From a virus, in IMG/VR virus record IMGVR_UViG_3300045988_112022: DNA of 64,000 nt; one strand, given 5' to 3'. Within the stretch, counting starts at the first letter, position 1, and the number at the start of each line of letters is the position of its first letter. Below, piece by piece: positions 7,544-41,087 of this stretch. The position numbers and the translations under genes are program-made. Below the pieces are notes generated by a model. That model was not told where the DNA came from. It saw only the letters and a program-made list of their open reading frames with translations, and ran no database searches.

Positions 7544-7572
7544 AAAGACTAATTTTATGGAGGTGCATATTT

Positions 7573-9005: not shown

Positions 9006-9118
9006 AACAGCCATGTAAGGGTTGCAAATATAGATATCCTCTAAACAATAAATTAAGGTGCTGCATATTCCCATCAATACCGAGAGATTGGTCATTCTTG
9101 GAAAGAAACGAGTCCTAA
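9002..9118 (+). CDS. 38-aa Cys-rich mini-ORF
   Basis: MKQPCKGCKYRYPLNNKLRCCIFPSIPRDWSFLERNES; ends ..ES-stop in the conserved hairpin like its neighbours. Confidence 0.3.
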   Translation: MKQPCKGCKYRYPLNNKLRCCIFPSIPRDWSFLERNES

Positions 9119-9135
9119 CAAGGGCTCTTTCTTTT
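9110..9135 (+). terminator. Conserved hairpin terminator (GAGTCC-TAACAA-GGGCTC)
   Basis: Hairpin followed by TTTCTTTT. Confidence 0.55.
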
Positions 9136-9163
9136 CTCGCGAAAAAATCAACTCCTTTAATGA
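9136..9163 (+). promoter_or_regulatory. Conserved phage element copy (variant CTCGCG-N15-TTAATGA)
   Basis: CTCGCGAAAAAATCAACTCCTTTAATGA. Confidence 0.5.
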
Positions 9164-10260: not shown

Positions 10261-10292
10261 AACAAAACTATGTTCATTTGAAAGGAGATATC

Positions 10293-12352: not shown

Positions 12353-12694
12353 ATGGAAGATCTAAAAGAGATTATTTTAAAAACTGAATACAGTAATAAA
12401 TTCGATGAGATTAGAAAAAACCTCGTCGTGCAGTCATATTTCAAATACGGGAAAGCTTCAAGAAATTTCGTAGCAGGGTATGTGGATGCGATTGGATCGC
12501 TTAAAAAGTGTATTCAGAAATTTGAAGAAACAGGTAACTTAGAATATCTGGCAGACGCTGCAAACTATTGCATGTTCAGATACATGTATCCACAAACAGG
12601 AGAATATTTCAAGCATACTGATTCCAACGAATCTGCCGGAATTGATGGTATGTCAGTAAAAGAAATCGAAGAGTTTAAAAAGGAGAACGAATAA
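12353..12694 (+). CDS. Hypothetical protein
   Basis: AAGGAG RBS; 113 aa. Confidence 0.65.
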   Translation: MEDLKEIILKTEYSNKFDEIRKNLVVQSYFKYGKASRNFVAGYVDAIGSLKKCIQKFEETGNLEYLADAANYCMFRYMYPQTGEYFKHTDSNESAGIDGMSVKEIEEFKKENE

Positions 12695-13626
12695 TGAAAA
12701 AATTAGCATTTATGAATACTATTTCCAGATCAGCACACAGAATGGCATTTAAGCTTCAGAAACACAGCCCGGAAATCCTTGTGGTGGCTGGAGTAATCGG
12801 CGCGGTGGCAAGTGCAGTGATGGCTTGCAAGGCCACAACTAAACTGGGCGATATTTTAGACGACTCCAGAGATAAAATTGATTCCATTCATGATGTGATT
12901 GAGAATCCGGATAAGGTTAATGCGGAGTATACACAGGAAGACGGAAACAAAGATCTTGCTATTGTATATACGCAGACCGCTCTGAAGGTTGCTAAAGTTT
13001 ATGCTCCTGCGGTTATTCTCGGAGGATTATCTATCACGGCTATTCTTACGTCTAACAATATTCTCAGAAAGAGGAACATTGCACTGGCTGCAGCTTACAC
13101 AGCAGTCGACAAAAGCTTCAAAGAATATCGTGGAAGAGTCGTTGAAAGATTCGGAAAGGAATTGGATAAAGAGCTCCGTTACAACATCAAAGCTAAGGAA
13201 GTGGAAGAGACTGTTACCGACGAAAAAGGTAACGAAAAAACTGTGAAAAAGACTGTCGACGTAGTAGATCCAAATGCCATCAGTGAATTTGCGAAATTCT
13301 TCGATGATGGATGCATTGGATGGACCAAAGATCCGGAACTCAATATGATTTTCTTACGCCAGCAGGAAGCAGCGGCAACTAAACGTCTGGAAGATCGTGG
13401 ACATTTATTCTTGAATGAAGTATACGATATGCTTGGCATCCCACACACAAGAGCAGGTCAGATTGTAGGATGGATCTATGATAAAAAGAATCCGATCGGT
13501 GATAACTATGTCGATTTCGGCATTTACGATACTAGCAAAGAAGCGAATCGTAACTTTGTGAACGGATACGAAAGAACAATTCTGCTTGATTTCAATGTTG
13601 ATGGAAACATCCTTGATCTAATGTGA
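12694..13626 (+). CDS. Two-TM phage protein, paralog C
   Basis: SPEILVVAGVIGAVASAVMACKATTKL, NIALAAAYTAVDKSFKEYRGRV and a C-terminal GW..LDF segment align with paralogs A and B. Confidence 0.75.
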   Translation: MKKLAFMNTISRSAHRMAFKLQKHSPEILVVAGVIGAVASAVMACKATTKLGDILDDSRDKIDSIHDVIENPDKVNAEYTQEDGNKDLAIVYTQTALKVAKVYAPAVILGGLSITAILTSNNILRKRNIALAAAYTAVDKSFKEYRGRVVERFGKELDKELRYNIKAKEVEETVTDEKGNEKTVKKTVDVVDPNAISEFAKFFDDGCIGWTKDPELNMIFLRQQEAAATKRLEDRGHLFLNEVYDMLGIPHTRAGQIVGWIYDKKNPIGDNYVDFGIYDTSKEANRNFVNGYERTILLDFNVDGNILDLM

Positions 13627-15087: not shown

Positions 15088-18000
15088 ATGATTGATTTCA
15101 TGAAGATTTCGACGCGCCAAGTGAAAAAGGGTGTCACCGAGATATTCCCTAAATTTGTTCTGAAGAAATCGTCGGATCTCATGATACGGGGCGGCGATTT
15201 CTATGCTGTTTGGAATGAAGATACTGGTCTCTGGTCTACTGACGAAGAAGACGTGATCAACATGATTGATGCCGCATTATATGAATATACGAAAAAACAG
15301 GAAGAACACGCGATTGATGAACTTAACACAAAATATATGTGGGATTCAAATTCCGGTTCTATAGACGCCTGGCATAAATATTGCCAAAAGCAGATGCGAG
15401 ACAACTATCATCCACTAGACGAGAAAATTATATTTGGTGATACCAAGACGACCAAAAAGGATTACGCCAGTCGAACGCTCAGTTATCCGCTGAGAGAATG
15501 TGATATTTCAGGATACGAAAGGCTTATGTCTACTTTATATTCTCCGGAAGAGCGAAAGAAAATCGAATGGGCCATCGGCGCAGTTATCGAAGGGGATTCC
15601 AAGAATATTCAAAAATTTATGGTTCTTTATGGTTCTGCGGGAACCGGTAAATCAACAGTCTTAAATATTATACAGCAGTTATTTGAGGGTTATTATTCGG
15701 TCTTTGACGCTAAGGCGTTGGGATCGGCTAATAACTCTTTTGCGTTAGAGGCGTTTAAAGCAAATCCGCTTATCGCAATTCAACATGATGGAGATTTATC
15801 CAAAATTGAGGATAACACTCGATTAAACAGTCTTGTATCTCATGAACTTATGACTGTAAATGAGAAGTTTAAATCTACTTATGCGAATAGATTTAACGCT
15901 TTCTTATTTATGGGAACCAATAAGCCGGTAAAGATTACGGACAGCAAATCTGGTTTACTCAGACGATTGATCGATGTCACGCCATCCGGCAATAAACTCG
16001 ACCAGAGAGAATATTCAGATTGTATGGATAAAATCCCTTTTGAGCTTCCGGGAATTGCGTATCACTGTCATCAGGTATATTTGGCGAATAAACATGTGTA
16101 CGATTCATACGTTCCGACGCTGATGATGGGTGCTACGAACGATTTCTATAATTTCATGATTGATTCATTCAGTGTGTTTAAAAAGAATGACGGAACGACT
16201 CTCAAAACTGCCTGGGAGATGTATAAGGTGTATTGCGACGAGACCAAGGTACCGTATCCATATTCTCAGAGAGTGTTCAAAGAAGAGCTTAGGAATTATT
16301 TCTGGAATTTCGACGAGGAATTTGACAGTGAATCTCAGGCTCGGAATGTATATTCAGGGTTCCGACTTGATAAATTCGAGAAGGATATGAGGAGTGAGAA
16401 GAAAGATGATGGAGAGAAGACGAAAGGCACTATTGAATTTATGGAGGGAATATCTTCAAAATTCGATATCCTTGCGGGAGATTATTTGGCTCAATACGCC
16501 AATGAAAAGGAAACCCCTACCAAACCATGGGATGTTGTTACCACGAGGTTACACGACATCAATGTTCATAAATTACATTATGTCAAGGTTCCAGAGAATC
16601 ATATAGTCATTGATTTTGATATTAAGGATGAATCCGGTAATAAATCATTCGAGAAAAATCTGGCTGCAGCAAGCAAATGGCCGGCTACATATGCTGAGTT
16701 AAGTAAAAGTGGCGCAGGGATTCACCTTCATTATATTTATGATGGCGATTCAACACTGCTCAACCGTCTTTACGACAAAGACATTGAAATAAAGGTATTC
16801 ACAGGAAAAAGTTCACTCAGGAGAAAGCTTACAAAATGCAATGATTTACCTATTGCACATATTAGCTCAGGACTTCCTTTGAAGGAGGAAGGAAAAAAAG
16901 TGATAAATATTGAAGGATTTAAAAACGAACAGAGTCTCAGAACTACCATAAAAAGAAATCTCGAAAAAGAATATCATCACGACACTCGAAGTAGTGTTGA
17001 TTTTATCAATAAGCTTCTCAATGATGCTTATGCCAGCGACAAAGCATATGATGTATCCGATATGAGAAATGCTGTATATTCTTTCGCAGCCCAAAGCACC
17101 AATCAGGCTGATTATTGTCTGAGACTTGTAAGCAAAATGAAATTTAAATCTGAAGAACCGGCGGTAGCGCTCACAAACGATGAGAAGCCGCTGGTTTTTT
17201 ATGATTGCGAGGTATTTCCTAACTTGTTCCTGGTTAACTGGAAAGTACAGGGAGAGGGAAAGCCTATCGTAAGGCTGATAAATCCACGACCGCAGGACAT
17301 TGAAGAACTTATCAAATTCCGGTTGGTAGGATTTAATTGTCGTAGATATGATAATCATATGTTATATGCTTGTATGATGGGGTATACGAACGAGCAGCTG
17401 TATGATTTATCCCAGAAAATTGTAAATACGAAAAAAGGCGACAGTCGAAAGGTATTGTTCGGCGAGGCGTACAATATTTCATATACTGATATTTATGATT
17501 TCGCTTCTGCGGGTAACAAAAAGAGCTTGAAAAAACTTGAGATCGAAATGGGGATTCACCATCAGGAGCTTGGACTTCCGTGGGACAAGCCTGTGCCTAA
17601 AGAATTATGGCAGAAAGTAGCGGAGTATTGTGATAACGATGTCCTGGCGACGGAAGCTGCATGGGATTACCTGAAAAGTGATTTTATTGCAAGAGAGATT
17701 CTGGCTGATCTGGCCGGATTGACTGTGAACGACACCACCAATACTCTGACTCAGAGATTTATATTTGGTAATAATAAGCATCCTCAGAACGAGTTTCAGT
17801 ATCGTAACTTGGCTGAGCCTGTATATGAGTTAGATCCGGAAGTAAAGGCCTTCCTTGAGAAATCCTGTAGGGAAATGATGGCCGAACCTCACGGAGAAGC
17901 CTGCAGCTTGTTGCCATATTTTCCGGGCTACAAATACGAAAATGGTGTTTCTACATATCGTGGAGAAGAAGTTGGCGAGGGCGGTTATGTATACGCCGAA

Positions 18001-19311
18001 CCAGGCATGTATGGAAACGTAGCGTTGCTGGATATCGCTTCAATGCACCCACACAGCACCATTGCTGAATGTCTGTTTGGAGTCAGATACACAACAGCAT
18101 ATAGAGAAATTGTCGAGGGACGTGTATCTATCAAACATGAGGCCTGGGATATTGTCAATGATATGCTTGGCGGTAAACTTACGAAACATATCGAGAGGGT
18201 TAAGAATGGCGAGTTGACATCCGAAGATCTTGCTAACGCACTCAAGACTGCAATCAACTCGGTATATGGCCTTACATCAGCTAACTTCGACAATCCGTTC
18301 AGGGATATTCGTAACAAAGATAATATCGTTGCCAAACGTGGCGCGCTGTTTATGGTGGATCTTAAACATGAGGTACAGAAGAGAGGATTTACTGTTGCTC
18401 ATATCAAGACAGATTCCATTAAGATTCCGGATGCTACACCGGAGATTATCAAATTCGTCATGGACTTTGGTAAGCGGTATGGCTACACATTTGAGCATGA
18501 GGCTACTTACGATCGAATGTGTCTCGTAAATAATGCGGTTTATATTGCTAAGTATAAAGACCCAGATGAGTGTGTGGCTATGTATGGATATGCTCCAGGC
18601 GATAATAAGAAACATAAGAATAATCCATGGACAGCTACCGGCAAGCAGTTTGCGGTTCCTTATGTATTCAAGACTTGTTTCAGCCGGGAACCAGTAACAA
18701 TCAATGATATGAGAGAAACTTTCTCAGTGAAATCGGCTTTATATTTGGATATGAATGAGAAATTACCGGACGTATCTGAATACGAGAAGAAACTTGAGAA
18801 GTTGGAATCCGACTACAAGAAAGGCAAAATCTCAGATACCACGTTTGAACCGGAAGCTGGCGTACTGCAGGAGCTGATCAATGATGGTCATGACCGTAAA
18901 TTCGTTGGTAAAGTCGGAGAATTCTGTCCGGTTAAACCTGGCAAGGGCGGTGGCATTCTCGTCAGAGAGCAGAATGGTAAATTCTACGCGGCTACCGGCA
19001 CTACCGGATTCAGATGGCTTGAGGCAGAAATGCTGTTGAAGAAAACCGCAGAGATGGCGACGATTATCGATCCGGATACTGGAAAAGAGAAAAAGATATC
19101 TGGAGCAGAGCTGATTACTGGCAACGACGGTATTATCGACCGATCATATTATGACAAACTCGTTAATGACGCCATCGAATCTATTTCTAAATATGGTGAT
19201 TATGAATGGTTTATATCTGAAGATCCGTATATTCCTAAAGAAAAACCATTACCGGATTTTATGAATATTCCAGAAGGCACCGATGAAGAGGTAGAGTTAC
19301 CTTGGAATTGA
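15088..19311 (+). CDS. Fusion replicase: SF3 (D5-like) helicase + archaeo-eukaryotic primase-like domain + family-B DNA polymerase with 3'-5' exonuclease
   Basis: Walker A GSAGTGKST (~15631). AEP-like VIDFDIKDE (~16606) and SGAGIHLHY (~16708). ExoI FYDCEVF, ExoII GFNCRRYDNHML, ExoIII YCDNDVLAT. PolB motif A LLDIASMHPHS, motif B KTAINSVYG (~18244), motif C KTDS (~18406). Confidence 0.85.
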   Translation: MIDFMKISTRQVKKGVTEIFPKFVLKKSSDLMIRGGDFYAVWNEDTGLWSTDEEDVINMIDAALYEYTKKQEEHAIDELNTKYMWDSNSGSIDAWHKYCQKQMRDNYHPLDEKIIFGDTKTTKKDYASRTLSYPLRECDISGYERLMSTLYSPEERKKIEWAIGAVIEGDSKNIQKFMVLYGSAGTGKSTVLNIIQQLFEGYYSVFDAKALGSANNSFALEAFKANPLIAIQHDGDLSKIEDNTRLNSLVSHELMTVNEKFKSTYANRFNAFLFMGTNKPVKITDSKSGLLRRLIDVTPSGNKLDQREYSDCMDKIPFELPGIAYHCHQVYLANKHVYDSYVPTLMMGATNDFYNFMIDSFSVFKKNDGTTLKTAWEMYKVYCDETKVPYPYSQRVFKEELRNYFWNFDEEFDSESQARNVYSGFRLDKFEKDMRSEKKDDGEKTKGTIEFMEGISSKFDILAGDYLAQYANEKETPTKPWDVVTTRLHDINVHKLHYVKVPENHIVIDFDIKDESGNKSFEKNLAAASKWPATYAELSKSGAGIHLHYIYDGDSTLLNRLYDKDIEIKVFTGKSSLRRKLTKCNDLPIAHISSGLPLKEEGKKVINIEGFKNEQSLRTTIKRNLEKEYHHDTRSSVDFINKLLNDAYASDKAYDVSDMRNAVYSFAAQSTNQADYCLRLVSKMKFKSEEPAVALTNDEKPLVFYDCEVFPNLFLVNWKVQGEGKPIVRLINPRPQDIEELIKFRLVGFNCRRYDNHMLYACMMGYTNEQLYDLSQKIVNTKKGDSRKVLFGEAYNISYTDIYDFASAGNKKSLKKLEIEMGIHHQELGLPWDKPVPKELWQKVAEYCDNDVLATEAAWDYLKSDFIAREILADLAGLTVNDTTNTLTQRFIFGNNKHPQNEFQYRNLAEPVYELDPEVKAFLEKSCREMMAEPHGEACSLLPYFPGYKYENGVSTYRGEEVGEGGYVYAEPGMYGNVALLDIASMHPHSTIAECLFGVRYTTAYREIVEGRVSIKHEAWDIVNDMLGGKLTKHIERVKNGELTSEDLANALKTAINSVYGLTSANFDNPFRDIRNKDNIVAKRGALFMVDLKHEVQKRGFTVAHIKTDSIKIPDATPEIIKFVMDFGKRYGYTFEHEATYDRMCLVNNAVYIAKYKDPDECVAMYGYAPGDNKKHKNNPWTATGKQFAVPYVFKTCFSREPVTINDMRETFSVKSALYLDMNEKLPDVSEYEKKLEKLESDYKKGKISDTTFEPEAGVLQELINDGHDRKFVGKVGEFCPVKPGKGGGILVREQNGKFYAATGTTGFRWLEAEMLLKKTAEMATIIDPDTGKEKKISGAELITGNDGIIDRSYYDKLVNDAIESISKYGDYEWFISEDPYIPKEKPLPDFMNIPEGTDEEVELPWN
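17599..17661 (+). repeat. Copy 1 of a 63-nt repeat (PolB ExoIII motif coding segment)
   Basis: Matches 20638-20700 at 56 of 63 positions by hand alignment. Confidence 0.8.
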
Positions 19312-20347: not shown

Positions 20348-20491
20348 ATGAGTGACGGAGCAAAAATTGTTATAGCCGGAATCATGGCTTATACAATATA
20401 TAGAGTCGCAGGAAAGTGTACGGACGCTAGGATTGCAATTGCAGCTATGAGATGCGGAGTTACTATGAAATTGGAAGAAAAGGAGAAATGA
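20348..20491 (+). CDS. 47-aa membrane peptide
   Basis: GAGGGAG RBS before ATG 20348; hydrophobic helix. Confidence 0.45.
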   Translation: MSDGAKIVIAGIMAYTIYRVAGKCTDARIAIAAMRCGVTMKLEEKEK

Positions 20492-20493
20492 TT

Positions 20494-20976
20494 ATGAATA
20501 TTTATTGTGATTTATGTGCAAATAAAGACCGTAAGGAAACGTGCAGAACTTGTGTTAGTGGTATCCTTAACATGACAACAGACGGAGCTGAATATAGTTT
20601 ACCTTCGAAATTCTCAGTCATTATTAAGCCTGCGCCAAAAGAATTACGGCAGAAGGTAGCGGAGTACTGTGACAACGATGTCCTGGCGACTAAAGCTGCG
20701 TTCAACAAATTATTCGGAACAGGCCTTACGGTATCACCATATCAGAAGGCTATGTCCAGAATTAAAAATGTTATCTTCAATGATCCGGCTACAATTGTAT
20801 TTTGGAGTGATGGCACTAAGACCGTTGTAAAATGCGGTAAGGATGACACATTTGATCCGGAGAAAGGTCTGGCTATGGCGATTTCTAAATACTTCTTTGA
20901 TAATGCCGGATATTTCAATGATGTGTTTAAGAAGTGGATTCCTAAGAAAGGAGAAAGCGATGGAAAAGACCAGTGA
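20494..20976 (+). CDS. Chimeric-looking protein: Cys-rich N-terminus, embedded PolB ExoIII-like segment, conserved phage C-terminal domain
   Basis: AAGGAG RBS. CDLC..CRTC, then PKELRQKVAEYCDNDVLATKAA, then ATIVFWSDGTKTVVKCG..DPEKGLAMAISKYFF. Confidence 0.65.
   Translation: MNIYCDLCANKDRKETCRTCVSGILNMTTDGAEYSLPSKFSVIIKPAPKELRQKVAEYCDNDVLATKAAFNKLFGTGLTVSPYQKAMSRIKNVIFNDPATIVFWSDGTKTVVKCGKDDTFDPEKGLAMAISKYFFDNAGYFNDVFKKWIPKKGESDGKDQ
20638..20700 (+). repeat. Copy 2 of the 63-nt PolB ExoIII repeat
   Basis: Read in frame in both genes. Confidence 0.8.
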
Positions 20977-21142
20977 TTCATTAATTATAGGTTATGATTC
21001 ATCGGCGGGTAAGGACGGCACAGTTTTAATCGTGGGGCGTAAAAAACCCCGCGAAGCCGTCGATGTTATAAATGCTTTCGATGGAGAAGAAGCTCTTGAA
21101 CTTTATAAAAAGTTGATTACACCAAAGGCGAAAAATGAGTAA
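20960..21142 (+). CDS. Hypothetical 60-aa protein
   Basis: GGAGAAAG before ATG 20960; overlaps the upstream gene end. Confidence 0.45.
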   Translation: MEKTSDSLIIGYDSSAGKDGTVLIVGRKKPREAVDVINAFDGEEALELYKKLITPKAKNE

Positions 21143-22371
21143 TGACAGATTTCTTACGTAATTATCAAATGGCAGCTGTGCATAAAATGAAAAACGGCTG
21201 TATTCTCAACGGGGGGACTGGTTCTGGTAAATCTAGGACCGGTCTCTATTATTATTTCAAAGAGAATGGTGGTAGCTTCCTTAATCAAGAATTTATTCCG
21301 ATGAAAAATCCTCAGAATCTTTACATCATTACAACGGCAATGAAACGAGATTCTCATGAATGGGATAGTGAACTGGCGAATTATAGAATATCTACAAACC
21401 CAGATAAAAATGAATTATATCCAGGACAGACAGTAGTAATCGACTCTTGGAATAATATAAAGAAGTATATAGAAATAAAAGATGCGTTCTTTATATTTGA
21501 TGAGGATAGAGTTACAGGATCTGGTGAATGGGTAAAATCGTTTCAGAAAATCGCTAAAAACAACGACTGGATTATATTATCGGCAACTCCTGGCGATTGC
21601 TGGGCGGATTATATTCCGGTATTTGTGGCGAATGGGTTCTATAAAAATAAAACGGAATTTTGTAGAGAGCATGTGGTATATTCCAGATTTACCAAATATC
21701 CTCAGATAGACAGATATTTGAATGTAGGTAGACTAGTTAGACTGAGAAACAGAATACTGGTTGATATGGATTTTCAACGAACTACGGTACAGCATCATAT
21801 GGATGTATATGCGACTTATGATATTCCTAAATACAAAGATGCTATAAGAAATCGTTGGGACCCATTTAAAAACGAGCCTATTCAGCAGGCATCTGGTCTT
21901 TGCTATGTTCTCAGAAGGATTGTAAATACGGATGAGTCAAGGGTTGTAGCTCTTATGGAGATATTAGAAAAAACTCCAAGGGCTATTATATTTTACAATT
22001 TTGACTATGAAAGAGAAATATTATTGCATCTGTTTAGCGATGATGAATATATAGGTTACGAAGTAGCTGAATGGTCCGGACATGCTCATCAACCGGTACC
22101 ATATGCAGATAGATGGATATATTTGGTTCAGTACACTGCTGGATGTGAGGGATGGAACTGCATTAGTACAGATACTATCATATTCTTCTCTCAAAATTAC
22201 AGCTATAAAGTTACTGAGCAGGCGTGTGGACGAATAGATCGATTGAATACTCCATATCGCAATTTATATTTTTATCACATAAAGAGCAGATCTGGAATTG
22301 ATATGGCAATTACCAAAGCCTTAAATAAGAAGAAAAAATTCAACGAAAGGAAGTTTGCTGGATGGGGGTAA
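21142..22371 (+). CDS. SF2 (DEAD/SNF2-like) helicase
   Basis: GGTGSGKSR Walker A, IFDEDR motif II, LSATPG motif III, QACGRIDR motif VI. Confidence 0.8.
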   Translation: MTDFLRNYQMAAVHKMKNGCILNGGTGSGKSRTGLYYYFKENGGSFLNQEFIPMKNPQNLYIITTAMKRDSHEWDSELANYRISTNPDKNELYPGQTVVIDSWNNIKKYIEIKDAFFIFDEDRVTGSGEWVKSFQKIAKNNDWIILSATPGDCWADYIPVFVANGFYKNKTEFCREHVVYSRFTKYPQIDRYLNVGRLVRLRNRILVDMDFQRTTVQHHMDVYATYDIPKYKDAIRNRWDPFKNEPIQQASGLCYVLRRIVNTDESRVVALMEILEKTPRAIIFYNFDYEREILLHLFSDDEYIGYEVAEWSGHAHQPVPYADRWIYLVQYTAGCEGWNCISTDTIIFFSQNYSYKVTEQACGRIDRLNTPYRNLYFYHIKSRSGIDMAITKALNKKKKFNERKFAGWG

Positions 22372-32212: not shown

Positions 32213-32395
32213 ATGAGTAAAAAGAAAGGGAGACCGAAGAAAGATTTCGCTCGGGAGTACCAGTATCGAGTGCGTTTATCACTTGGCGATATTTATACTT
32301 TAGAATATATACAGGAAGTGACTGGTAAAACAAAGGCCGAAATTTTCAGAGATGGATTGAAAGCGGAGTATGAAAAGGCGAGACGGCTTGATTAA
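32213..32395 (+). CDS. Ribbon-helix-helix (CopG/Arc/ParG-like) DNA-binding protein
   Basis: GGAGG RBS. Basic N-terminus, a YRVRLSLGD beta-strand, then two helices. Confidence 0.5.
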   Translation: MSKKKGRPKKDFAREYQYRVRLSLGDIYTLEYIQEVTGKTKAEIFRDGLKAEYEKARRLD

Positions 32396-32528
32396 TTGGA
32401 TATCCAAAAAATGCGAAAAATGAATTATTGGATATCCAAAAAGTCACGAATATTAATCGTTGCAGGAGGTACAGGTTTGAATTATTGGATATCCAAAAAG
32501 TCTACGAAACGATTAATTGGATATCCAA
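32396..32528. repeat. Four copies of the 12-bp palindrome TTGGATATCCAA
   Basis: Copies at 32396, 32428, 32485 and 32517, forming two pairs each spaced 32 bp. Each is flanked by AAT(T/A) and an A-run. Confidence 0.85.
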
Positions 32529-32546
32529 AAAATCGGAAATTAGCCC

Positions 32547-32943: not shown

Positions 32944-32953
32944 GGTGACGGAA

Positions 32954-33388
32954 ATGAGCGAATTAAAAAAACAATGGATTGACGATGAATATCTGTGGCA
33001 GGATTTCTTGGACTACTTCAATCCAGACTTCGATGAGATTGCCGATATTAAACAGATGAGCTGTTATGATATTCTGGTCACCATGAAAAATGGGGTGCAA
33101 TATATTTACGACAATTACCGTCAGACACGAAGGCGACTCCCAAATAGTTGGGATGATATGAGTCTTAAAGAATTTCATATGGATGCACATATAAGATTAT
33201 ATTCTATGATGAAGCGGGAAGGTTTCACATATGATGACCTGTCTGAAGAAACGGGCATATCTCCAGGAACTATAAGTAATTATGTGAATGGCGTGACATC
33301 CCCAACCCTCGACAGATTATTTCTGATTGCCAAAGCATTAGGCTGCCGGATTGAAGACCTAATCTATATCGAGCATATGTACAGATAA
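32954..33388 (+). CDS. Protein with a C-terminal XRE-type HTH domain
   Basis: FTYDDLSEETGISPGTISNYVNGVTSPTLDRLFLIAKALG. Alternative GTG start at 32945. Confidence 0.7.
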   Translation: MSELKKQWIDDEYLWQDFLDYFNPDFDEIADIKQMSCYDILVTMKNGVQYIYDNYRQTRRRLPNSWDDMSLKEFHMDAHIRLYSMMKREGFTYDDLSEETGISPGTISNYVNGVTSPTLDRLFLIAKALGCRIEDLIYIEHMYR

Positions 33389-33963: not shown

Positions 33964-34254
33964 ATGAAAGAAAATAAGTTTCAGGCAGATTTGAAAAAAG
34001 AGCTTAGAGCTATATTTCCTGGTTGCATTGTAACCAAACTGGATTCGAGCGATATTCAGGGTATCCCCGATCTTCTTGTTTTATACAAAGACAAGTGGGC
34101 GGCTCTGGAAGTTAAGAAAAGTGCTACGGCATCACATCGTCCGAATCAGGATTACTATGTTGCAAAAATGAACGCCATGTCATTTTCACGATTTATCTAC
34201 CCAGAAAATAAGGAGGATGTTTTAGATGAACTTCGTGAATCATTCAAAGCTTAG
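33964..34254 (+). CDS. VRR-NUC domain nuclease
   Basis: GIPDLLVLYKDKWAALEVKK...NQDYYVAKMN fits the D..E.K VRR-NUC core. Confidence 0.6.
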   Translation: MKENKFQADLKKELRAIFPGCIVTKLDSSDIQGIPDLLVLYKDKWAALEVKKSATASHRPNQDYYVAKMNAMSFSRFIYPENKEDVLDELRESFKA

Positions 34255-34783
34255 TGGACTTCACGCACCATTCAGCCCAAGTCAGCCAGCATGGTTGAGA
34301 TATAGTGATGAGAAAGCAATCGCAGTTCGACAGAACAAGAAAGCTGCAGAACTTGGCACACGCTTACATGCATGGGCAAAAGAAACTATTGATATGGGTA
34401 TTAAACAGCCTCGCTCGAAGAAAACCTTATACGCATATGTAAACGATGCTATCGGTTTTCGCATGAGTACAGAGGTTGTTTTATATTATTCAGACAGATT
34501 CTTCGGAACTGCAGATGCGATTTGTTTCCGGAATAATAAGCTCAGAATCCATGATTTGAAGACTGGCGTCGGTCCAGTGCATATGGAGCAGCTTGAGGTG
34601 TATGCAGCGTTATTCTGTCTTGAATATAAGATCAGACCAGGCGATATCGAGTTTGAACTCTGTATTTACCAGAATGATGAAGTAGTAGTATTCAACCCGA
34701 CTGCAGAAGATATTCTGCCGATTATGGATAAGATTGTTCATCTTGACAAGATACTTGCGGAATGTGATGCAGAGGAGGCATAA
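34226..34783 (+). CDS. PD-(D/E)XK family nuclease (Cas4/exonuclease-like)
   Basis: AAGGAGGA RBS. GTADAICF...LRIHDLKTG matches the D..(D/E)xK pattern. Confidence 0.5.
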   Translation: MNFVNHSKLSGLHAPFSPSQPAWLRYSDEKAIAVRQNKKAAELGTRLHAWAKETIDMGIKQPRSKKTLYAYVNDAIGFRMSTEVVLYYSDRFFGTADAICFRNNKLRIHDLKTGVGPVHMEQLEVYAALFCLEYKIRPGDIEFELCIYQNDEVVVFNPTAEDILPIMDKIVHLDKILAECDAEEA

Positions 34784-34786
34784 CCG

Positions 34787-35332
34787 ATGACTGAATTCTA
34801 TAACGGTTGGGAAGAAAATGAAGTATGGGTTAATCTTGAGCGTTTCCCGAAACATCAAATCAGCACATTCGGTAGAATACGGAATAAATGTAGCGGCCAT
34901 ATTCTCAAACCATTTTTGGACAGATACGGTTATCTACGGGTTAGCATCGGTAATACCGATAATGTATACATACATCGTCTAATGTGTGAAACTTTTTATG
35001 GCGCACCAAAATTCGATCGAGCTCAAGTTAACCATATAGATTGCGATCGAGAAAATAACCACATATTTAATCTTGAATGGTGTTCAGCTAAAGATAACAT
35101 AAAATGGGCTTGTGAACACGGAAAACTAGATTATAAAAAAGGGTTGAAAATGGCGGTTAAAGCCAACGTAAAACCTGTCCGGATAATAGAACTCGATAAA
35201 ACCTTTTCGAGTGTAAAAGATTGTGCCAAATTTCTTCATATAAATCCGAATAGAGTAAGTAGATGTCTTATCGGATCAAGAAAAGGGCAACGTATACATG
35301 GATATCATATAGAGTACGCGGAGGCAGAATGA
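34787..35332 (+). CDS. HNH homing endonuclease (NUMOD4 + HNH + C-terminal NUMOD/IENR repeat)
   Basis: WVNLERFPKHQISTFGRIRN, then VNHIDCDRENNHIFNLEW, then IIELDKTFSSVKDCAKFLHINPNRVSRCL..GYHI. Confidence 0.8.
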   Translation: MTEFYNGWEENEVWVNLERFPKHQISTFGRIRNKCSGHILKPFLDRYGYLRVSIGNTDNVYIHRLMCETFYGAPKFDRAQVNHIDCDRENNHIFNLEWCSAKDNIKWACEHGKLDYKKGLKMAVKANVKPVRIIELDKTFSSVKDCAKFLHINPNRVSRCLIGSRKGQRIHGYHIEYAEAE

Positions 35333-38241
35333 TGAATAGTATAGTAGAAGAAATTGAATCATTTTTAGGATCAGCCTCTATGACAGATGAGGAATATCTG
35401 GCTCATTATGGTATGCCCCGCCGTTCCGGGCGATATCCTTGGGGGTCGGGGAAAAATGGCTATCAAAGCTCACGTGACTTCTTAGGTCGTGTTGAGCAGA
35501 TGCGAAAATCTGGTTTTACATATACTGATGAAAACGGTAAGAAATGGACTGGTGATAATGCGATTGCTAAATCACTTGGTTACAATTCTACCGATTTCCG
35601 AACAGTGTATGCGATTGCAAAAGACGAGCGTAGATCAGATATGGTTGCCACAGCCAAACGTCTCAGAGACAAAGAAGGAATGAACAATTCTGAGATTGGT
35701 CGAAAAATGGGAATCAATGAATCATCTGTTCGATCACTCCTTGATCCAAATTCCGAGTCAAGAATGAAGCAGGCCAGAGACACGGCCAAATTCTTGAAAG
35801 AACAGGTTGATAAAAAAGGCATGGTTGATGTCGGTGCCGGTGTAAACAATGATCTGAAAATCACAAAAGAAAAACTGGATCAGGCATTGTTTATATTACA
35901 GGCTGAAGGAAACTATGAGGTTTATGGAGGTCGATTCTCACAGGTCACAAATAAAGGTCAGATGACGACTCAGAGAGTTCTTTGTAAACCAGGAACACCG
36001 CATAGTGCAATCTACGATTTTGATAATGTCAAGACAGTCACTGATTATATTTCCAGAGATGATGGGAAGACCTATGAAAAGAAATTCACATATCCTGAAA
36101 GCTTAGATTCCAAGCGTCTTATGATTCGCTATAAAGAAGATGGCGGTATTGATAGAGATGGAACCGTTGAACTCAGGAGAAATGTACCGGATCTGTCGCT
36201 TGGCGAATCCAAATATTCTCAGGTCCGTATAATGGTTGACGGAAAGAAATATATCAAAGGCATGGCTGTCTATAAAGATGATAAAGACTTTCCACCAGGT
36301 GTCGATGTTATATTTAACACCAACAAGTCCAAGAGTGTTCCGAAACTGGAAGTTCTCAAAGATGTGAAACCAGATCCGGACAACCCCTTCGGCTCTCTTA
36401 TTAAAGATGCCGATCAAGGCGGGCAGTATTGGTATACCGACAAAAATGGTAAGAAGAAGCTCGGCCTTATTAATAAGCGATCCGATGAAGGCGATTGGAC
36501 TGAATGGAAAGATGCTTTACCATCTCAGTTCTTATCCAAACAGTCAAAAGCTATGGCAGAAAAACAGCTTGGCATCGCTAAAGCAGACAAGCAGGCAGAA
36601 TATGAAGCTATCATGGCTCTGACTAATCCGACTGTAAAGAAATATTATCTTGATAAATTCGCAAGCAGTTGTGACTCAGCAGCCGTACATCTTAAAGCAG
36701 CCGCATTACCGGGTCAGAAATACCATGTTATTCTACCTGTCACATCTCTGAGTGAGAAAGAAGTATACGCCCCTGGATATCCTGATGGAAGTAAACTTGC
36801 TCTTGTTCGATATCCTCATGGTGGTACATTTGAGATTCCAATCTGTACAGTCAACAACAAAAACAAAGATGCTATCAAGATGATTGGAAAGGATTCTATC
36901 GACGCGATTGGTATCAACAGTAGAGTTGCTGAACGATTATCTGGAGCCGACTTCGATGGCGACACTGTAATGTGTATTCCCACTCATGATCGTGCCGGAA
37001 AAGTTAAGATCGCTAGTCGTCCGCCTCTTGAAGGGCTCGAGGGATTCGATCCTAAGATGGGTTATCAGGGCGAGAAGAAAACTGGATCTGATGGTAAAGA
37101 ACATTGGTATCGAGACGGCAGAGAATACCAGCTCATGAAGAAGACTGATACTGAGATGGGTAAAATCTCTAATCTGATTACCGATATGACTATCATTGGA
37201 GCTACCGATGATGAATTAGCTCGTGCTGTAAGACATAGCATGGTCGTCATCGATGCTGAGAAGCATCATCTGGATTACAAACAGAGTGAAAAAGACAACA
37301 ACATTCAGGCACTAAAGCAGAAGTATCAGATCAAGGTCGACGAGAACGGGAAGATCAAATACGGCGGCGCATCCACCCTTATTTCCAGAGCCAAAGGAGA
37401 AGTTACTGTTGATAAGCGACAGGGAACTCCTAAACCAAACCTCCCGGGTAAAGAATGGTATGATCCATCCAGACCTGACGGAGCTCTTATCTACAAGAAA
37501 GCTGACGACGCTACCTATACCGTCAAGAAAGTGGATAAGAAGACCGGTGAGGTAACGGAGGTAACTAAGAAGCGTACCGATAAGAGTAACCGTATGTCTG
37601 AAACTGATGACGCTATGACCTTGGTATCTAAGTATAGACACCCAATGGAACTTGTGTATGCTGATTACGCTAATAGCATGAAAGCTATGGCCAACAAAGC
37701 AAGGGTTGAGTCCAGTAAAGCCGGTAAGATAGCCTACAGTAAGGATGCTAAGAGGAAGTATCAGGAAGAGTATGACAGTCTCACTAAGAAACTGGCGATA
37801 GCCGAATCTAATACACCTCGTGAACGTGCAGCCCAGCGTATGGCTAATGCTACCGTTCAGAGAAAGCAGAAAGCTGCTGAAGAAGCTGGTGTTAAGCTCA
37901 AACCGAAGGATGTTAAGAAAGCAAGTCAGCAAGCACTCACGAAAGCAAGAGAAGAAGTTGGCTCTGTTTCGAGAAGAGACCGAAACATCGTCATCACTGA
38001 TAAAGAATGGGATGCTATACAGGCAGGTGCAGTCAGTGAATCCATACTCAAACGTGTTCTCAATAACTGTGATCCGGATTCTTTAAGACAAAGAGCAATG
38101 CCGAAAGAAACAAAAGTTCTTAATCAAGCAAAGATTAACAGAATCAAAGCGATGTCTGCATCGTACACAATTCAGCAGATTGCAGAAAAGCTTGGCGTTT
38201 CAACCTCAACAGTTTCCAAGTATTTGAAAGGAGCGAATTAG
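35329..38241 (+). CDS. Candidate single-subunit double-psi-beta-barrel RNA polymerase (YonO / RdRP-like) with N- and C-terminal HTH modules
   Basis: GGAGG RBS; ATG 35329 overlaps the HNH stop (ATGA). LALVRYPHGG (36805) then LSGADFDGDTVMCIP (DFDGD at 36949-36963). HTH-like NNSEIGRKMGINESSVRSLL and IQQIAEKLGVSTSTVSKYLKG. Confidence 0.55.
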   Translation: MMNSIVEEIESFLGSASMTDEEYLAHYGMPRRSGRYPWGSGKNGYQSSRDFLGRVEQMRKSGFTYTDENGKKWTGDNAIAKSLGYNSTDFRTVYAIAKDERRSDMVATAKRLRDKEGMNNSEIGRKMGINESSVRSLLDPNSESRMKQARDTAKFLKEQVDKKGMVDVGAGVNNDLKITKEKLDQALFILQAEGNYEVYGGRFSQVTNKGQMTTQRVLCKPGTPHSAIYDFDNVKTVTDYISRDDGKTYEKKFTYPESLDSKRLMIRYKEDGGIDRDGTVELRRNVPDLSLGESKYSQVRIMVDGKKYIKGMAVYKDDKDFPPGVDVIFNTNKSKSVPKLEVLKDVKPDPDNPFGSLIKDADQGGQYWYTDKNGKKKLGLINKRSDEGDWTEWKDALPSQFLSKQSKAMAEKQLGIAKADKQAEYEAIMALTNPTVKKYYLDKFASSCDSAAVHLKAAALPGQKYHVILPVTSLSEKEVYAPGYPDGSKLALVRYPHGGTFEIPICTVNNKNKDAIKMIGKDSIDAIGINSRVAERLSGADFDGDTVMCIPTHDRAGKVKIASRPPLEGLEGFDPKMGYQGEKKTGSDGKEHWYRDGREYQLMKKTDTEMGKISNLITDMTIIGATDDELARAVRHSMVVIDAEKHHLDYKQSEKDNNIQALKQKYQIKVDENGKIKYGGASTLISRAKGEVTVDKRQGTPKPNLPGKEWYDPSRPDGALIYKKADDATYTVKKVDKKTGEVTEVTKKRTDKSNRMSETDDAMTLVSKYRHPMELVYADYANSMKAMANKARVESSKAGKIAYSKDAKRKYQEEYDSLTKKLAIAESNTPRERAAQRMANATVQRKQKAAEEAGVKLKPKDVKKASQQALTKAREEVGSVSRRDRNIVITDKEWDAIQAGAVSESILKRVLNNCDPDSLRQRAMPKETKVLNQAKINRIKAMSASYTIQQIAEKLGVSTSTVSKYLKGAN

Positions 38242-38245: not shown

Positions 38246-38518
38246 ATGGATGATTTCAGATTAACAACATTTGACAATCCTTACGATCCATTCGAACAGT
38301 TCACTCTTTGGTACTTGTTCGATACAGAAAAAGGTTACAACACTTGTGGAAAACTGGATCGTATTTCCAATTATTCTGACGACATGACAGAAAAAGAGGT
38401 CAATGATGAACATAATCGTGCAATCGATGAGTTAATATCATTTGATTTCTTGAATATTTACAAAAAAGTTCCGCGAAATTCGAAAGTTGCGCTGGATTTA
38501 GGCGCTGCCCAGGTGTAA
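38246..38518 (+). CDS. Hypothetical protein
   Basis: 90-aa ORF directly after the polymerase candidate. Confidence 0.6.
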   Translation: MDDFRLTTFDNPYDPFEQFTLWYLFDTEKGYNTCGKLDRISNYSDDMTEKEVNDEHNRAIDELISFDFLNIYKKVPRNSKVALDLGAAQV

Positions 38519-38534
38519 TCCGATATCAAAGCAT

Positions 38535-38609
38535 AGGGGGAGGGTCGCTAAAAAAGCACCCCCTCCCTGCATCGCGCCGGTCTTCCGAATTTCCCCGGCG
38601 GGATTTTTC
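38535..38609 (+). other. GC-rich twin hairpins in a 304-bp non-coding gap (terminator and/or cos/pac candidate)
   Basis: AGGGGGAGGG...CCCCCTCCCT, then CGCCGG-N14-CCGGCG followed by GATTTTT. This is the most GC-rich non-coding patch I noticed in the window. Confidence 0.45.
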
Positions 38610-38822
38610 CAGAAACAATTTATATTTTTATGCTGCCCTCAGAGGGGTTTATTGAACCACAAAGCCATTTAATCCGCGTGTATTTCTCCTTTCAAGATTT
38701 GTACTTCTTTTGAGTTAGTCAACCTCGTACCGATAGGTTCCTTAAACTCCTCTAAAGACAGCATAACATTAATGAAATCTGACAAATAGTCGATAACAAT
38801 TAAATTCAAGGAGGCGTAAACG

Positions 38823-39560: not shown

Positions 39561-39902
39561 ATGAATGAAAGTATTCTAATATCGATCAAGGCACAACTGG
39601 GTATTCAGGAAGAGTATACAGCTTTTGACCAGCAGCTTATTATGCACATCAATTCGGTGTTTATGGTTTTAAAGCAGCTTGGAGTAGGTCCTGCGGCTGG
39701 TTTCACTATTTCAGATAAAACAGCTACATGGAATGATTTTCTCTCATCCGATAAGAACCTCGAAGCAACGAAGTCTTATGTCGGCATGAGAGTGAGAATG
39801 CTGTTCGATCCGCCAACAACTTCAATTGTTGCCGAAAGTATGAATCGTATGATCAATGAGTTTGAGTGGCGACTTAACTCGGAAGCGGAAAGTGATAATT
39901 AA
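39561..39902 (+). CDS. Possible head-tail connector (gp6-like) protein
   Basis: AGAGGAG RBS before ATG 39561. ISIKAQLGIQEEYTAFDQQLIMHI resembles connector N-termini. Weak. Confidence 0.55.
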   Translation: MNESILISIKAQLGIQEEYTAFDQQLIMHINSVFMVLKQLGVGPAAGFTISDKTATWNDFLSSDKNLEATKSYVGMRVRMLFDPPTTSIVAESMNRMINEFEWRLNSEAESDN

Positions 39903-40537
39903 TCTAAAATTCCCTTGAAGAAAACATCTTGGGATTTGGCGGCAATAGCTGAGGTTCCGACAAAATCAAATCCAGCTCCAACCAAACCGCCAACAAATGG
40001 AACCATTTTTCCAAGATTAATTATACCTTTGGTTCCAAATTTTGTTATAAATCGCTGACCAACTTTCTGGTTAATTTTGGTTAAAACTTCCCCAGGGATT
40101 TTCTTGATCATGCTTATGGTAAATTTGTTGGTAAATTGAACTCCCGCTTCACGGCAGATTTTTGAAACAGAAGCGCCAGTAAGACATACGTACGCCATAG
40201 TTTGAACTTCATCATCGGAAGGATCGTAGCCAGCCAGAACGGCAATAGTTGCGATCATACGAAGTTGTATATACCATACGCTTGCTAAATTAGCAGGAAT
40301 CGCCACCGGAAGAGTTAATATTCCGCCAAGACTTGTTATAAATCCGGATGTGGAACATTTCATAATTTGCCATTTCGCAAAAGCAGCGGTAGCTTTTTCG
40401 GCATCACCGTATTTATTAAGATACTGCTCGGCTATTTCATAACAATTTGGTGTGTTAGGTAAACCATTAAGCGCAGCTTCGTAACATTTATTCAATGCAC
40501 TCATCACTTGATCTTCGGTTAAAGCGAGTTTTGACAT
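39899..40537 (-). CDS. EcsC-family-like membrane-associated protein (moron on the opposite strand)
   Basis: AAGGAG RBS before the minus-strand ATG 40537. GGILTLPVAIPANLASVWYIQLRMIATIAVLAGYDP is typical of EcsC as I recall it. Confidence 0.55.
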   Translation of the reverse strand: MSKLALTEDQVMSALNKCYEAALNGLPNTPNCYEIAEQYLNKYGDAEKATAAFAKWQIMKCSTSGFITSLGGILTLPVAIPANLASVWYIQLRMIATIAVLAGYDPSDDEVQTMAYVCLTGASVSKICREAGVQFTNKFTISMIKKIPGEVLTKINQKVGQRFITKFGTKGIINLGKMVPFVGGLVGAGFDFVGTSAIAAKSQDVFFKGILD

Positions 40538-40625
40538 ATGTATATCTCCTTCCAATACGATGATTGTATTGTAACAAGAGACGAATGTGAATGCAAGACA
40601 GTATGATAGAAATGAGGTGATATAA

Positions 40626-41087
40626 ATGGGAGATACAGAATTTTTAGCCCATCATGGTGTCCTTAACATGAAATGGGGAGTTCGACGATATCAGAACAAA
40701 GACGGAAGTCTCACTAGAGCCGGACAGAAAAAAGCTAAAAAAATGAAAGATAAGTATACGAAGCTCACCGGAAAACAGCTGAGAAGGAATCCGACTAAAA
40801 AATCGTCCACTCAAAAACCGAAGCAAAAAAGTATCAGCGAAATGTCTGATGAAGAAATTCGTACTAAAATCAACAGAATCAAACTGGAGCAGGAACTTGG
40901 GAGTTTGAGTCCTAAGAAAATTTCCCGCGGTAAAGCTTTTATAGATAAAGTAGCAAAAGACATAATCGCTCCAGCTGCAACAGATGTGGCTAAGCAGGTT
41001 GTAAATTCAAAACTTGCCGATGCGGCTAACCGTATATTCGGCTTAAGCGGAGATCTGAAAGTCCATACCAACAATAAGAAAAAATAG
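40626..41087 (+). CDS. Basic protein with HHGVLNMKWGVR N-terminal motif; alternative small-terminase candidate by position
   Basis: GAGGTGA RBS; Lys-rich; ends 12 nt before terL. Confidence 0.65.
   Translation: MGDTEFLAHHGVLNMKWGVRRYQNKDGSLTRAGQKKAKKMKDKYTKLTGKQLRRNPTKKSSTQKPKQKSISEMSDEEIRTKINRIKLEQELGSLSPKKISRGKAFIDKVAKDIIAPAATDVAKQVVNSKLADAANRIFGLSGDLKVHTNNKKK

Follow-up and report, generated by a model that had tools for sequence, protein, structure and literature searches.

Two-barrel polymerases are the lineage to which all cellular RNA polymerases (RNAPs) belong, and their single-chain members show what a minimal enzyme is able to do. Among the single-chain members of bacteria and phages, YonO of the Bacillus prophage SPbeta is the only one for which we found a biochemical characterisation; it is a DNA-dependent enzyme that reads the late genes of SPbeta from one promoter of undefined sequence (PMC5467207). 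QDE-1 of Neurospora, a eukaryotic RNA-dependent RNA polymerase (RdRP), also uses DNA templates (PMC9508822). Eight residues are invariant in all two-barrel polymerases (in QDE-1: D709, R738, K743, R962, P964, D1007, D1009 and D1011), and on this basis a protein of Lactococcus phage 1706 was argued to represent one of five 'YonO-like' families of true nucleotide polymerases (Ruprich-Robert & Thuriaux 2010, PMC2919709). Koert et al. 2021 (bioRxiv 10.1101/842583) described the family as RdRP-like (HHpred probability 95.7%) with helix-turn-helix (HTH) modules at both ends, and as a signature gene of a group made up of Streptomyces BI-cluster phages, an actinobacteriophage supercluster, and Lactococcus and Faecalibacterium phages; promoters, transcription and terminators are not mentioned there. 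Here we describe a member of this family encoded in the IMG/VR virus record IMGVR_UViG_3300045988_112022 (a stretch of 64,000 nucleotides, hereafter the window), together with a 32-nt promoter-like motif that it may recognise.

The window protein matched the profile phrog_4291 ('RNA-dependent RNA polymerase') over nearly its whole length (E = 0, 1243 bits, residues 16-969 against positions 4-908 of 909). By tblastn, full-length homologues were found in 251 phage genomes at ~41-44% identity, the best being a human faecal phage at 62%. Their hosts are Arthrobacter, Gordonia, Streptomyces, Rhodococcus, Curtobacterium, Microbacterium, Lactococcus (phages 1706 and P092) and Faecalibacterium; human-gut siphoviruses and ReqiPoco6 also carry the gene, which is nearly always the last large gene at the right genome end. 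In the records most homologues are named 'helix-turn-helix DNA binding domain protein' and some 'RNA-dependent RNA polymerase', while phage 1706 has 'structural protein' and Faecalibacterium phage Oengus 'putative RNA polymerase'. When 1.84 billion cluster representatives were searched with the family profile, at least 1189 clusters (50% identity) matched at E<=1e-30. The best 150 of these 1189 span the profile from ~8 to 887 of 889, and such end-to-end matches indicate that the N-terminal motif and both HTH modules described below are standard family architecture. At the DNA level, no relative turned up when the 15 kb surrounding the gene were compared with 50,697 phage records by megablast.

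Judged by these matches, the protein is a member of a large, bioinformatically described family (phrog_4291, or '1706-type'), and the polymerase assignment itself is not novel. The initial annotation had called such an enzyme poorly described biology, which holds in so far as we found no assays of the family, but the prediction had already been made (PMC2919709; bioRxiv 10.1101/842583). The phrog_4291 relatives (orf75 of Lactococcus phage 1706; Streptomyces BI, Arthrobacter AU and Gordonia DJ phages; Oengus) are homologous over their full length at 41-62% identity and share the same order of an N-terminal motif, an HTH, two barrels, a helical region and a C-terminal HTH. They also share the gene neighbourhood (VRR-Nuc, exonuclease, polymerase, small protein, genome end) and the promoter-like motif, whereas the window phage differs from them in having an integrase gene, an HNH gene inserted upstream of the polymerase gene and no DNA-level match. 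What this analysis adds is a candidate cognate promoter, conserved across phyla and restricted to the early/middle region, for which a start site is predicted; conserved terminator-like hairpins, a recent HNH insertion and an N-terminal motif shared with DUF7211 proteins are further additions. As a separate observation, some family members (P0152, P0161 and P0221, 1045-1072 aa; P0371 and P0374, ~1065 aa) have an extra domain of ~160 residues. In three members this polymerase-fused domain is Pfam PF13563 (2'-5' RNA ligase / 2H phosphoesterase), which hints at an RNA-end chemistry linked to the enzyme.

The gene and the parts of its product lie as follows (all on the plus strand).

35329-38241, plus: gene for the two-barrel RNA-polymerase-like protein, 970 aa, start possibly at 35332; full-length phrog_4291 match, AlphaFold2 (AF2) model with Foldseek matches to QDE-1 and RDR2
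35392-35451, plus: conserved N-terminal motif EEYLAHYGMPRRSGRYPWGSG, residues 22-41, predicted to be disordered (predicted local distance difference test, pLDDT, <50 for residues 1-49)
35674-35742, plus: N-terminal HTH, residues 116-138 (Pfam HTH_28, E 4.6e-5, just under the cut-off)
36157-36261, plus: first (beta-like) barrel motifs D277-G278, Q298-x-R300 and K310-G311 (from conservation; strands 264-330 in the model)
36808-36963, plus: second (beta-prime-like) barrel motifs R494-Y-P496-H and S538-G-A-D541-F-D543-G-D545, the latter the metal-binding loop (all 150/150 in the alignment below)
38158-38232, plus: C-terminal HTH, residues 944-968 (HTH_23 1.2e-8, Sigma70_r4 5.7e-8, Sigma70_r4_2 9.4e-8)

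The ATG at 35329 overlaps the stop of the upstream open reading frame (ORF) as ATGA, and the stop codon of the 970-aa ORF ends at 38241. A GGAGG at 35320-35324 is better spaced for the second ATG, at 35332, than for 35329, and the database protein P0001, which is 99% identical, has 969 aa, a trivial difference; a longer start at the in-frame ATG 35263 was unsupported by homologues. DFDGD was present where the initial annotation had placed it, at 36949-36963 (residues 541-545), as was the motif reported some 45 residues upstream: RYPH occupies residues 494-497 within LALVRYPHGGTFEIPICTV, which begins at residue 490, and R494 lies 47 residues before D541. Likewise, the two HTH-like segments, NNSEIGRKMGINESSVRSLL (residues 119-138) and IQQIAEKLGVSTSTVSKYLKG (residues 947-967), coincide with the Pfam matches at 116-138 (sub-threshold) and 944-968, as is standard in the family. 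Within the N-terminal HTH, GINESSVR is nearly invariant across the family; the C-terminal HTH is similar to sigma region 4 and LuxR. Pfam returned helix-turn-helix families alone for the window protein, and no polymerase family for the polymerase core on its own.

Structure models were built on a 62-sequence alignment assembled from three homologue searches. The full-length AF2 model had a mean pLDDT of 79 and a predicted template-modelling score (pTM) of 0.69, and a model of the core (residues 255-700) reached pLDDT 87 and pTM 0.82. Two six-strand blocks are visible, at residues 264-385 and 464-551. In a Foldseek search of the PDB the full model gave seven matches at E<=1e-3, namely QDE-1 (9.7e-9) and six RDR2 structures (maize and Arabidopsis), followed by the largest subunits of Pol II, Pol I and bacterial RNAP at E 0.03-0.5. 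The core model gave 21 matches at E<=1e-3, all of them QDE-1 (best 6.2e-9, query TM 0.51) or RDR2; next came the largest subunits of Pol IV, vaccinia RNAP and Pol II, over ~160 columns at a root-mean-square deviation of 2.5 Å. Matches in the BFVD viral structure library were other phage proteins named 'RNA-dependent RNA polymerase'. A sequence search of the PDB with the protein and the family profile found HTH-level matches only and none for the core. The two-barrel reading of the initial annotation thus came through the structural comparison, the core matching QDE-1 and RDR2 alone at E<=1e-3. The idea that DFDGD belongs to a Toprim or nuclease domain was rejected on the fold search.

Residue conservation was assessed in the window protein and 149 cluster representatives that are 42-64% identical to it. 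Q298, R300, K310, G311, R494, P496, D541, D543 and D545 were invariant (150/150), and D277 was conserved in 148/150. By sequence comparison, candidates for all eight catalytic residues of two-barrel polymerases can be placed in the window protein, seven of them invariant and the eighth being D277. We regard the mapping of the second-barrel residues onto QDE-1 as secure, and that of D277, R300 and K310 in the first barrel onto D709, R738 and K743, made by motif, as probable. The DG and QxR...KG motifs of the window protein are reminiscent of DG and QxR-x4-KG in RdRPs and of VRLPWVKG in YonO, and the spacing from RxP to DxDGD is similar to that in YonO (R492...D535) and QDE-1 (R962...D1007). Such invariance at 42-64% identity points to selection on catalysis. 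The Pfam RdRP model aligns to the DFDGD segment of orthologues (1706 orf75, E 7e-5, 22.1 bits; GantcherGoblin gp90, E 0.014); for PF05183, the eukaryote-type RdRP family, the window protein and its core were unmatched and the orthologues stayed below threshold (1706 orf75, 22.1 versus 23.8 bits). Fold and conservation together place the ORF product in the two-barrel (double-psi beta-barrel) superfamily, as a single-chain phage RNA polymerase with a QDE-1/RDR2-like core.

No structures other than QDE-1 and plant RDR2 matched significantly (E 6e-9 to 2e-4, with TM reaching 0.51 over the core). These two enzymes have in common with the window protein the DxDGD loop and RxP ~45 residues upstream, and have motifs resembling its first-barrel QxR...KG and DG, but sequence identity is 11-14%, and the eukaryotic enzymes are without HTH modules, N-terminal motif and promoter specificity. 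The likeness to YonO is of another kind: both are phage-encoded single chains of ~100 kDa whose genes adjoin the late operon, and ILRSPH...FDNDGD and VRLPWVKG of YonO correspond, at similar spacing, to LVRYPH...ADFDGD and QVR...KG in the window protein. Only these short catalytic motifs correspond, and the kinship with YonO that had been proposed was not detectable by sequence (best BLASTP E 0.19; hhalign probability 1.5% with the 62-sequence profile), which leaves phrog_4291 as a separate family. Pfam finds no domains in YonO, hence no HTH modules, whereas the window protein has both.

A whole-window repeat search found a 32-nt motif, CGCG-N6-ACA-N5-TnTWAT-G. With a position weight matrix (PWM) built from 18 copies and a site threshold of >=30 bits, 21 plus-strand sites were detected between ~2758 and ~30394, compared with 0-1 in shuffles. 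The motif occurs in the window on the gene strand only and in the early/middle region only; the PWM scan found no copy in the late region (38.5-64 kb). The copies and their scores, with a weak variant ahead of the nuclease/polymerase operon, are listed below.

2760-2791, plus: promoter-like motif copy, 38.6 bits
3655-3686, plus: promoter-like motif copy, 35.7 bits
3954-3985, plus: promoter-like motif copy, 40.4 bits
4659-4690, plus: promoter-like motif copy, 38.0 bits
6175-6206, plus: promoter-like motif copy, 37.3 bits
6861-6892, plus: promoter-like motif copy, 33.6 bits; Shine-Dalgarno directly after TATTATG
7180-7211, plus: promoter-like motif copy, 38.9 bits; Shine-Dalgarno directly after TATTATG, hairpin in front
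7515-7546, plus: promoter-like motif copy, 37.7 bits
7790-7821, plus: promoter-like motif copy, 37.4 bits
8052-8083, plus: promoter-like motif copy TTTCGCGTATCTTACAACTCCTATAATGAGAA, 38.6 bits
8408-8439, plus: promoter-like motif copy, 33.5 bits
8727-8758, plus: promoter-like motif copy, 41.9 bits
8882-8913, plus: promoter-like motif copy, 31.8 bits
9135-9166, plus: promoter-like motif copy, 41.4 bits
10040-10071, plus: promoter-like motif copy, 30.3 bits
11100-11131, plus: promoter-like motif copy, 38.4 bits
19313-19344, plus: promoter-like motif copy just past the primase/polymerase gene, 32.4 bits
22723-22754, plus: promoter-like motif copy, 35.0 bits
26836-26867, plus: promoter-like motif copy, 39.8 bits
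30396-30427, plus: promoter-like motif copy, the last strong copy, located 5 kb ahead of the polymerase gene, 40.8 bits
33847-33878, plus: weak variant ACGTGAAAATAACATCCCCTTTTATAGGGA before the nuclease/polymerase operon, 18 bits (window PWM)

The same motif, with identical spacing, was present in phages of other hosts. Arthrobacter phage GantcherGoblin has eight sites (seven by PWM) at 27.4-31.4 kb (TCGCAGAAAATACATGGCCTATAATGAGA), Gordonia phage Avazak 14 plus-strand sites with none in shuffles, Streptomyces phage Scap1 three (TCGCAAGTTTTACAGCCTCTATAGTGAGAC) and Lactococcus phage 1706 six (CCACATGTTTTACATACACTATAGTAGAAA). The genomes of these phages range from 33 to 61% G+C and their polymerases are 41-47% identical to the window's. 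In a 50-kb stretch of SPbeta, used as a control, there was no motif above shuffles. A matrix weighted equally over four phages was also applied to 80 IMG/VR loci encoding a relative (1.16 Mb in total), where it gave 183 matches on the polymerase strand, 4 on the opposite strand and 3 in shuffles. By position, 182 matches lay upstream of the gene (580 kb of sequence) and a single one downstream (359 kb), while the gene itself (226 kb) had none. Wherever a locus had enough upstream sequence, the motif usually stood 600-1400 nt before the gene, ahead of the nuclease/polymerase operon (60/68 loci).

A logo of 216 distinct sites showed C4 G5 C6 G7 (96, 92, 95 and 75%) followed by an A-rich stretch, then A14 C15 A16 (92, 100 and 94%), then C21, T22, T24, A26 and T27 (80-99%) and G28 (90%), followed by purines. 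When these sites were examined as sigma-70-type promoters, there was no TTGACA-like -35 and the conserved boxes did not lie at -35 or extended -10 positions; position 2 of the TnTWAT hexamer, the would-be A at -11, was A in 45%. Among sites with a recognisable Shine-Dalgarno and start codon, 50/155 had the Shine-Dalgarno core <=6 nt after the hexamer (e.g. TATTAT-GAAAGGAGTGATTTATATG). At such sites a start 6-8 nt downstream would remove the ribosome-binding site, whereas a start at G28 keeps it. A generic sigma-70 promoter/terminator scan, run over 32-42 kb, yielded no excess relative to shuffles and was uninformative. That the motif is a host sigma-A promoter kept by common descent was rejected as the main explanation, the conserved positions not being those that sigma-A reads. 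Its layout resembles the promoters of single-chain phage polymerases, in which conservation runs up to +1, as in T7 (...CACTATAG).

Most copies in the window follow a terminator-like hairpin and its T run and precede a ribosome-binding site.

7157-7181, plus: terminator-like hairpin GGGTCCTAACAAGGGCTC with a T-rich tail, before motif copies (repeat-search families D3, D6 and D8)
4198-4228, 6462-6492, 7491-7517, 7765-7795, 8704-8730 and 9110-9140, in the window: further hairpins before motif copies

Hairpins of the form CCC-CTAACAA-GGG also occur in Arthrobacter and Streptomyces phages, and a variant with a CCACAA loop in a Gordonia phage. Across host phyla the hairpin consensus is (G/A)nCCC-CTAACAA-GGGn(T/C) followed by TT(T/A)GGTTTT; examples in related loci are L007:28151 and 28599, L009 at ~23350 and ~24020, and L090 at ~9480, ~9840 and ~10650. 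A conserved loop sequence is unexpected for generic intrinsic terminators.

A 32-nt signal kept at non-sigma positions across two phyla, in phages whose proteins are ~45% identical, calls for a reader that the phages carry themselves. The non-structural genes common to all five complete or partial genomes are those for three DUF6353 paralogues, phrog_4079, phrog_4678, a primase/polymerase, a single-stranded DNA-binding protein, a helicase, two nucleases, the polymerase-like protein and phrog_4303. Recognisable domains for sequence-specific DNA binding occur in just one of their products, the polymerase-like protein. The CGCG and ACA boxes begin 10 bp apart, on one face of the helix, which fits two HTH modules on one protein. 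On balance we favour the 32-nt motif being the polymerase-like enzyme's own promoter, a conclusion drawn from sequence comparison.

Taken together, we put the probability at about 70% that the gene encodes a single-chain, two-barrel RNAP with fused HTH modules that is DNA-dependent and promoter-specific, uses the 32-nt motif as its promoter and has an early/middle role. In such an enzyme, the first barrel would supply D277, R300 and K310, and the second R494, P496 and the Mg-binding loop D541-x-D543-G-D545, with HTH modules fused to the N-terminal region and the extreme C-terminus. The promoter would read CGCG-N6-ACA-N5-T-n-T-W-A-T-G(+1)-purines. Its CGCG and ACA boxes, one helical turn apart, would be natural targets of the two HTH modules, and transcription would probably start at the conserved G directly past TnTWAT. 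If the motif is the enzyme's promoter, the enzyme transcribes the early/replication genes and its own operon, not the late operon. An enzyme that reads the promoters of its own coding region needs a source for the first round: synthesis by the host polymerase or, more speculatively, delivery inside the virion together with the DNA. In contrast to YonO with its single late promoter, the candidate promoter of the window phage is multi-copy and early/middle.

Several points weigh against this interpretation. The link between enzyme and motif rests on co-occurrence and the exclusion of alternatives, and the three DUF6353 paralogues, phrog_4079, phrog_4678 or phrog_4303 could be the motif reader or a specificity factor. 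The PWM scores its own training sites, which makes the logo partly circular, although the strand and position biases and the cross-genome matches are not. The closest solved structures, QDE-1 and RDR2, are RNA-dependent enzymes, and 9 residues separate R300 and K310, versus 4 in QDE-1 and YonO. The cycle needs a starter, and delivery in the virion is backed by GenBank annotation alone. Finally, no biochemical, transcriptomic or structural study of the phrog_4291 family was found in the accessible literature, and searches on the motif strings and on virion proteomics found nothing relevant.

The alternative that survives best concerns the gap that follows the polymerase module.

38519-38822, plus: non-coding gap between the polymerase module and the first gene of the packaging region, with hairpins at 38536-38567 and 38575-38600 plus a T run, TTCTCCTTTC at 38684-38693 and GGTTCCTTAAACTCC at 38736-38750

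The gap hairpins are G+C-rich (CACCCCCTCCC; ATCGCGGCGGTCTT in relatives, ATCGCGCCGGTCTT in the window) and recur in 13-21 of 32 related loci, and the elements TTCTCCTTTC and GGTTCTTTTAAATACTG are conserved in many loci with variable spacing. The records of the named phages are linear, and their genome ends fall in the corresponding gap just past the small gene, where many metagenomic contigs stop too. The gap probably holds the genome end, a late promoter or both, and its elements could be a cos site, a terminase site or a late promoter. If the motif drives early reading, the late region needs either another signal or read-through across joined genome ends.

The enzyme could instead act as a late-gene polymerase in the style of YonO: the host RNAP, perhaps with a phage factor, would read the early/middle motif, and the enzyme, as the last middle gene, would transcribe the packaging and structural operon from a promoter at 38519-38822. 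The gene does lie directly upstream of the late operon, and YonO serves its phage's late genes from a single promoter (PMC5467207). Having no motif copy, the late region needs some other signal, for which the conservation of TTCTCCTTTC and GGTTCTTTTAAATACTG across many loci offers candidates, and the question of how the cycle starts disappears. Yet host RNAP would then have to read a motif conserved across host phyla at positions that sigma-A does not use, without a -35 and without a reliable A at -11, and a sigma-type start would cut off the Shine-Dalgarno at a third of sites. The gap elements, variably spaced, could equally be cos or terminase sites, and both roles are compatible. We consider a purely late role unlikely. 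A late-gene role had been implied before; it is not what the motif suggests, which is confined to early/middle genes and the polymerase operon. The related claim that the gene stands at the boundary between the early/middle and late regions was correct, since it lies between replication/nuclease genes and packaging/structural genes.

Much less probable is an RdRP that copies phage or host RNA, for example into double-stranded or antisense RNA, and does not transcribe DNA. The best structural matches are cellular RdRPs, the weak Pfam match of the orthologues is to an RdRP family, and PHROGs and RefSeq use the name, but that name comes from homology and not from an assay. The two HTH DNA-binding modules are invariant in the architecture and a conserved promoter-like DNA motif co-occurs with the gene; moreover, QDE-1 itself accepts DNA templates (PMC9508822) and YonO is DNA-dependent (PMC5467207). 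Least probable of all is a DNA-binding regulator or virion/ejection protein whose polymerase-like core is no longer catalytic, as the annotations 'helix-turn-helix DNA binding domain protein' (most actinobacteriophage records) and 'structural protein' (1706) and the passing of Pfam thresholds by HTH domains only might suggest, for the catalytic-site residues are invariant or nearly so in the 150 sequences and no part of the protein is better conserved or better predicted than the core.

If the preferred reading of a promoter-specific, early/middle RNAP holds, the N-terminal motif bears on how the enzyme reaches the cell. All polymerase orthologues start with ELAHYGxxRxSGRYPWGSG, in which S33, G34 and R35 are conserved in 150/150, G28 in 148/150 and G39 in 149/150. 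This resembles the DUF7211 motif (D/E)EFLAH(F/Y)GVxGMKWG, found at or near the N-terminus of 1706 orf7, GantcherGoblin gp6, gp8 and gp9, Scap1 gp6, a window ORF and two TerL-flanking ORFs in the related locus L004.

40626-41087 in the window; L007:2719, 5153 and 5811; L008:2501; L009:2256; L004:10531 and 12798: DUF7211-motif proteins beside terminase/portal genes

In phage 1706, orf75 (the polymerase orthologue) and orf7 (the DUF7211 protein just before the terminase gene) are both annotated as 'structural protein', and the shared motif may be a capsid-targeting signal. A bolder version, which we put forward tentatively and regard as doubtful, is a virion-delivered, self-sufficient two-barrel RNAP: its HTH modules would read the CGCG and ACA boxes of a 32-bp promoter kept in phages of Actinobacteria and Firmicutes, transcription would start at the G after TnTWAT, and the disordered N-terminal motif (LAHYG...RYPWGSG) would load the enzyme into the capsid. 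The virion RNAPs of crAss-like (gp66), N4 and phiKZ-type phages would be functional analogues, as polymerases delivered with the DNA that read conserved early promoters. The crAss gp66 protein is a two-barrel enzyme with QDE-1-like features. These virion RNAPs are, however, much larger, multisubunit or of a different fold, and they were absent from the top Foldseek matches.

The family is very large (at least 1189 clusters and 251 sequenced phages, many of them easily grown SEA-PHAGES isolates), and now that a candidate promoter has been delimited and its start predicted, a single protein and a 32-bp DNA suffice to test how a minimal two-barrel RNAP recognises its promoter. Should the pairing be confirmed, it could provide Gram-positive hosts with a compact orthogonal transcription system, and the names in most database records would be due for correction. 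Were virion delivery also true, host-independent early transcription, so far seen in N4, crAss-like and jumbo phages, would be common in 40-70 kb soil and gut siphoviruses, and the enzyme would be the simplest known promoter-specific member of the multisubunit-RNAP lineage.

The polymerase gene is part of a conserved module, here interrupted by an insertion.

33964-34254, plus: VRR-Nuc-like endonuclease gene, first of the conserved operon (phrog_93; in 81 related loci; annotated VRR-Nuc in GantcherGoblin)
34226-34783, plus: Cas4/PD-(D/E)xK-type exonuclease gene, directly upstream of the polymerase gene in relatives (phrog_3953, E 1e-75, DUF2800; in 83 related loci)
34787-35332, plus: HNH homing-type endonuclease gene, inserted between the exonuclease and polymerase genes (HNH_3 and NUMOD4)
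38246-38518, plus: gene for a conserved 90-aa protein, always after the polymerase gene (phrog_4303, E 4e-33; in 83 related loci and in 1706, GantcherGoblin, Scap1 and Avazak)

The four-gene module of VRR-Nuc, exonuclease, polymerase and phrog_4303 was found in GantcherGoblin, 1706, Scap1 and Avazak and in 81-83 related loci. The HNH gene was absent at this position from three relatives, L004 (polymerase 82% identical), L011 (96%) and L010 (99%, exonuclease 100%); the exonucleases of L010 and L011 are 98-100% identical to the window's. Its absence from relatives that are 96-99% identical points to a very recent homing-type insertion. The translational coupling to a homing endonuclease noted in the initial annotation is real as an ATGA overlap, but it is incidental, given that the HNH gene is missing from these relatives.

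Past the phrog_4303 gene, a gap of ~305 nt is followed by phrog_4259, a terminase-associated HNH, a connector protein, a DUF7211 protein, TerL, portal and a protease-capsid fusion. Elsewhere in the window, a primase/polymerase gene lies at 15088-19311, a helicase gene at 21142-22371 and, at the left edge, a tyrosine-integrase-like gene (phrog_1) at 348-1598 on the minus strand. From the integrase gene the window phage is probably temperate; no integrase is annotated in the regions fetched for the named relatives, and GantcherGoblin is described as lytic.

Further features of the window were noted. The DUF6353 genes shared by the compared phages have these positions.

9267-10040, 10278-11099 and 12694-13626: three DUF6353 (phrog_2152) paralogues, conserved in all five phages compared

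These paralogues are among the few core non-structural genes and could be replication or transcription cofactors. A palindromic unit, ATTGGATATCCAAAAA, is present in four copies within two 61-nt direct repeats at 32385-32534, just upstream of an HTH-containing ORF (32945-33388); the repeats look like iterons or operators. A 74-nt stretch of the primase/polymerase gene (17587-17660) is repeated at 89% identity ~3 kb downstream, at 20626-20699 in the ORF 20452-20976, and may be the remnant of a gene fragment duplicated by a mobile insertion. In the packaging-gene block, an EcsC-family ORF on the minus strand (39899-40555) is present in L010 and absent from the close relative L004, and looks like a moron. 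Finally, a late gene, probably for a tail fibre, has collagen-like Gly-X-Y repeats with a 27-nt period at 61839-62036, and similar GGxCCx repeats occur in the minor tail genes of GantcherGoblin.

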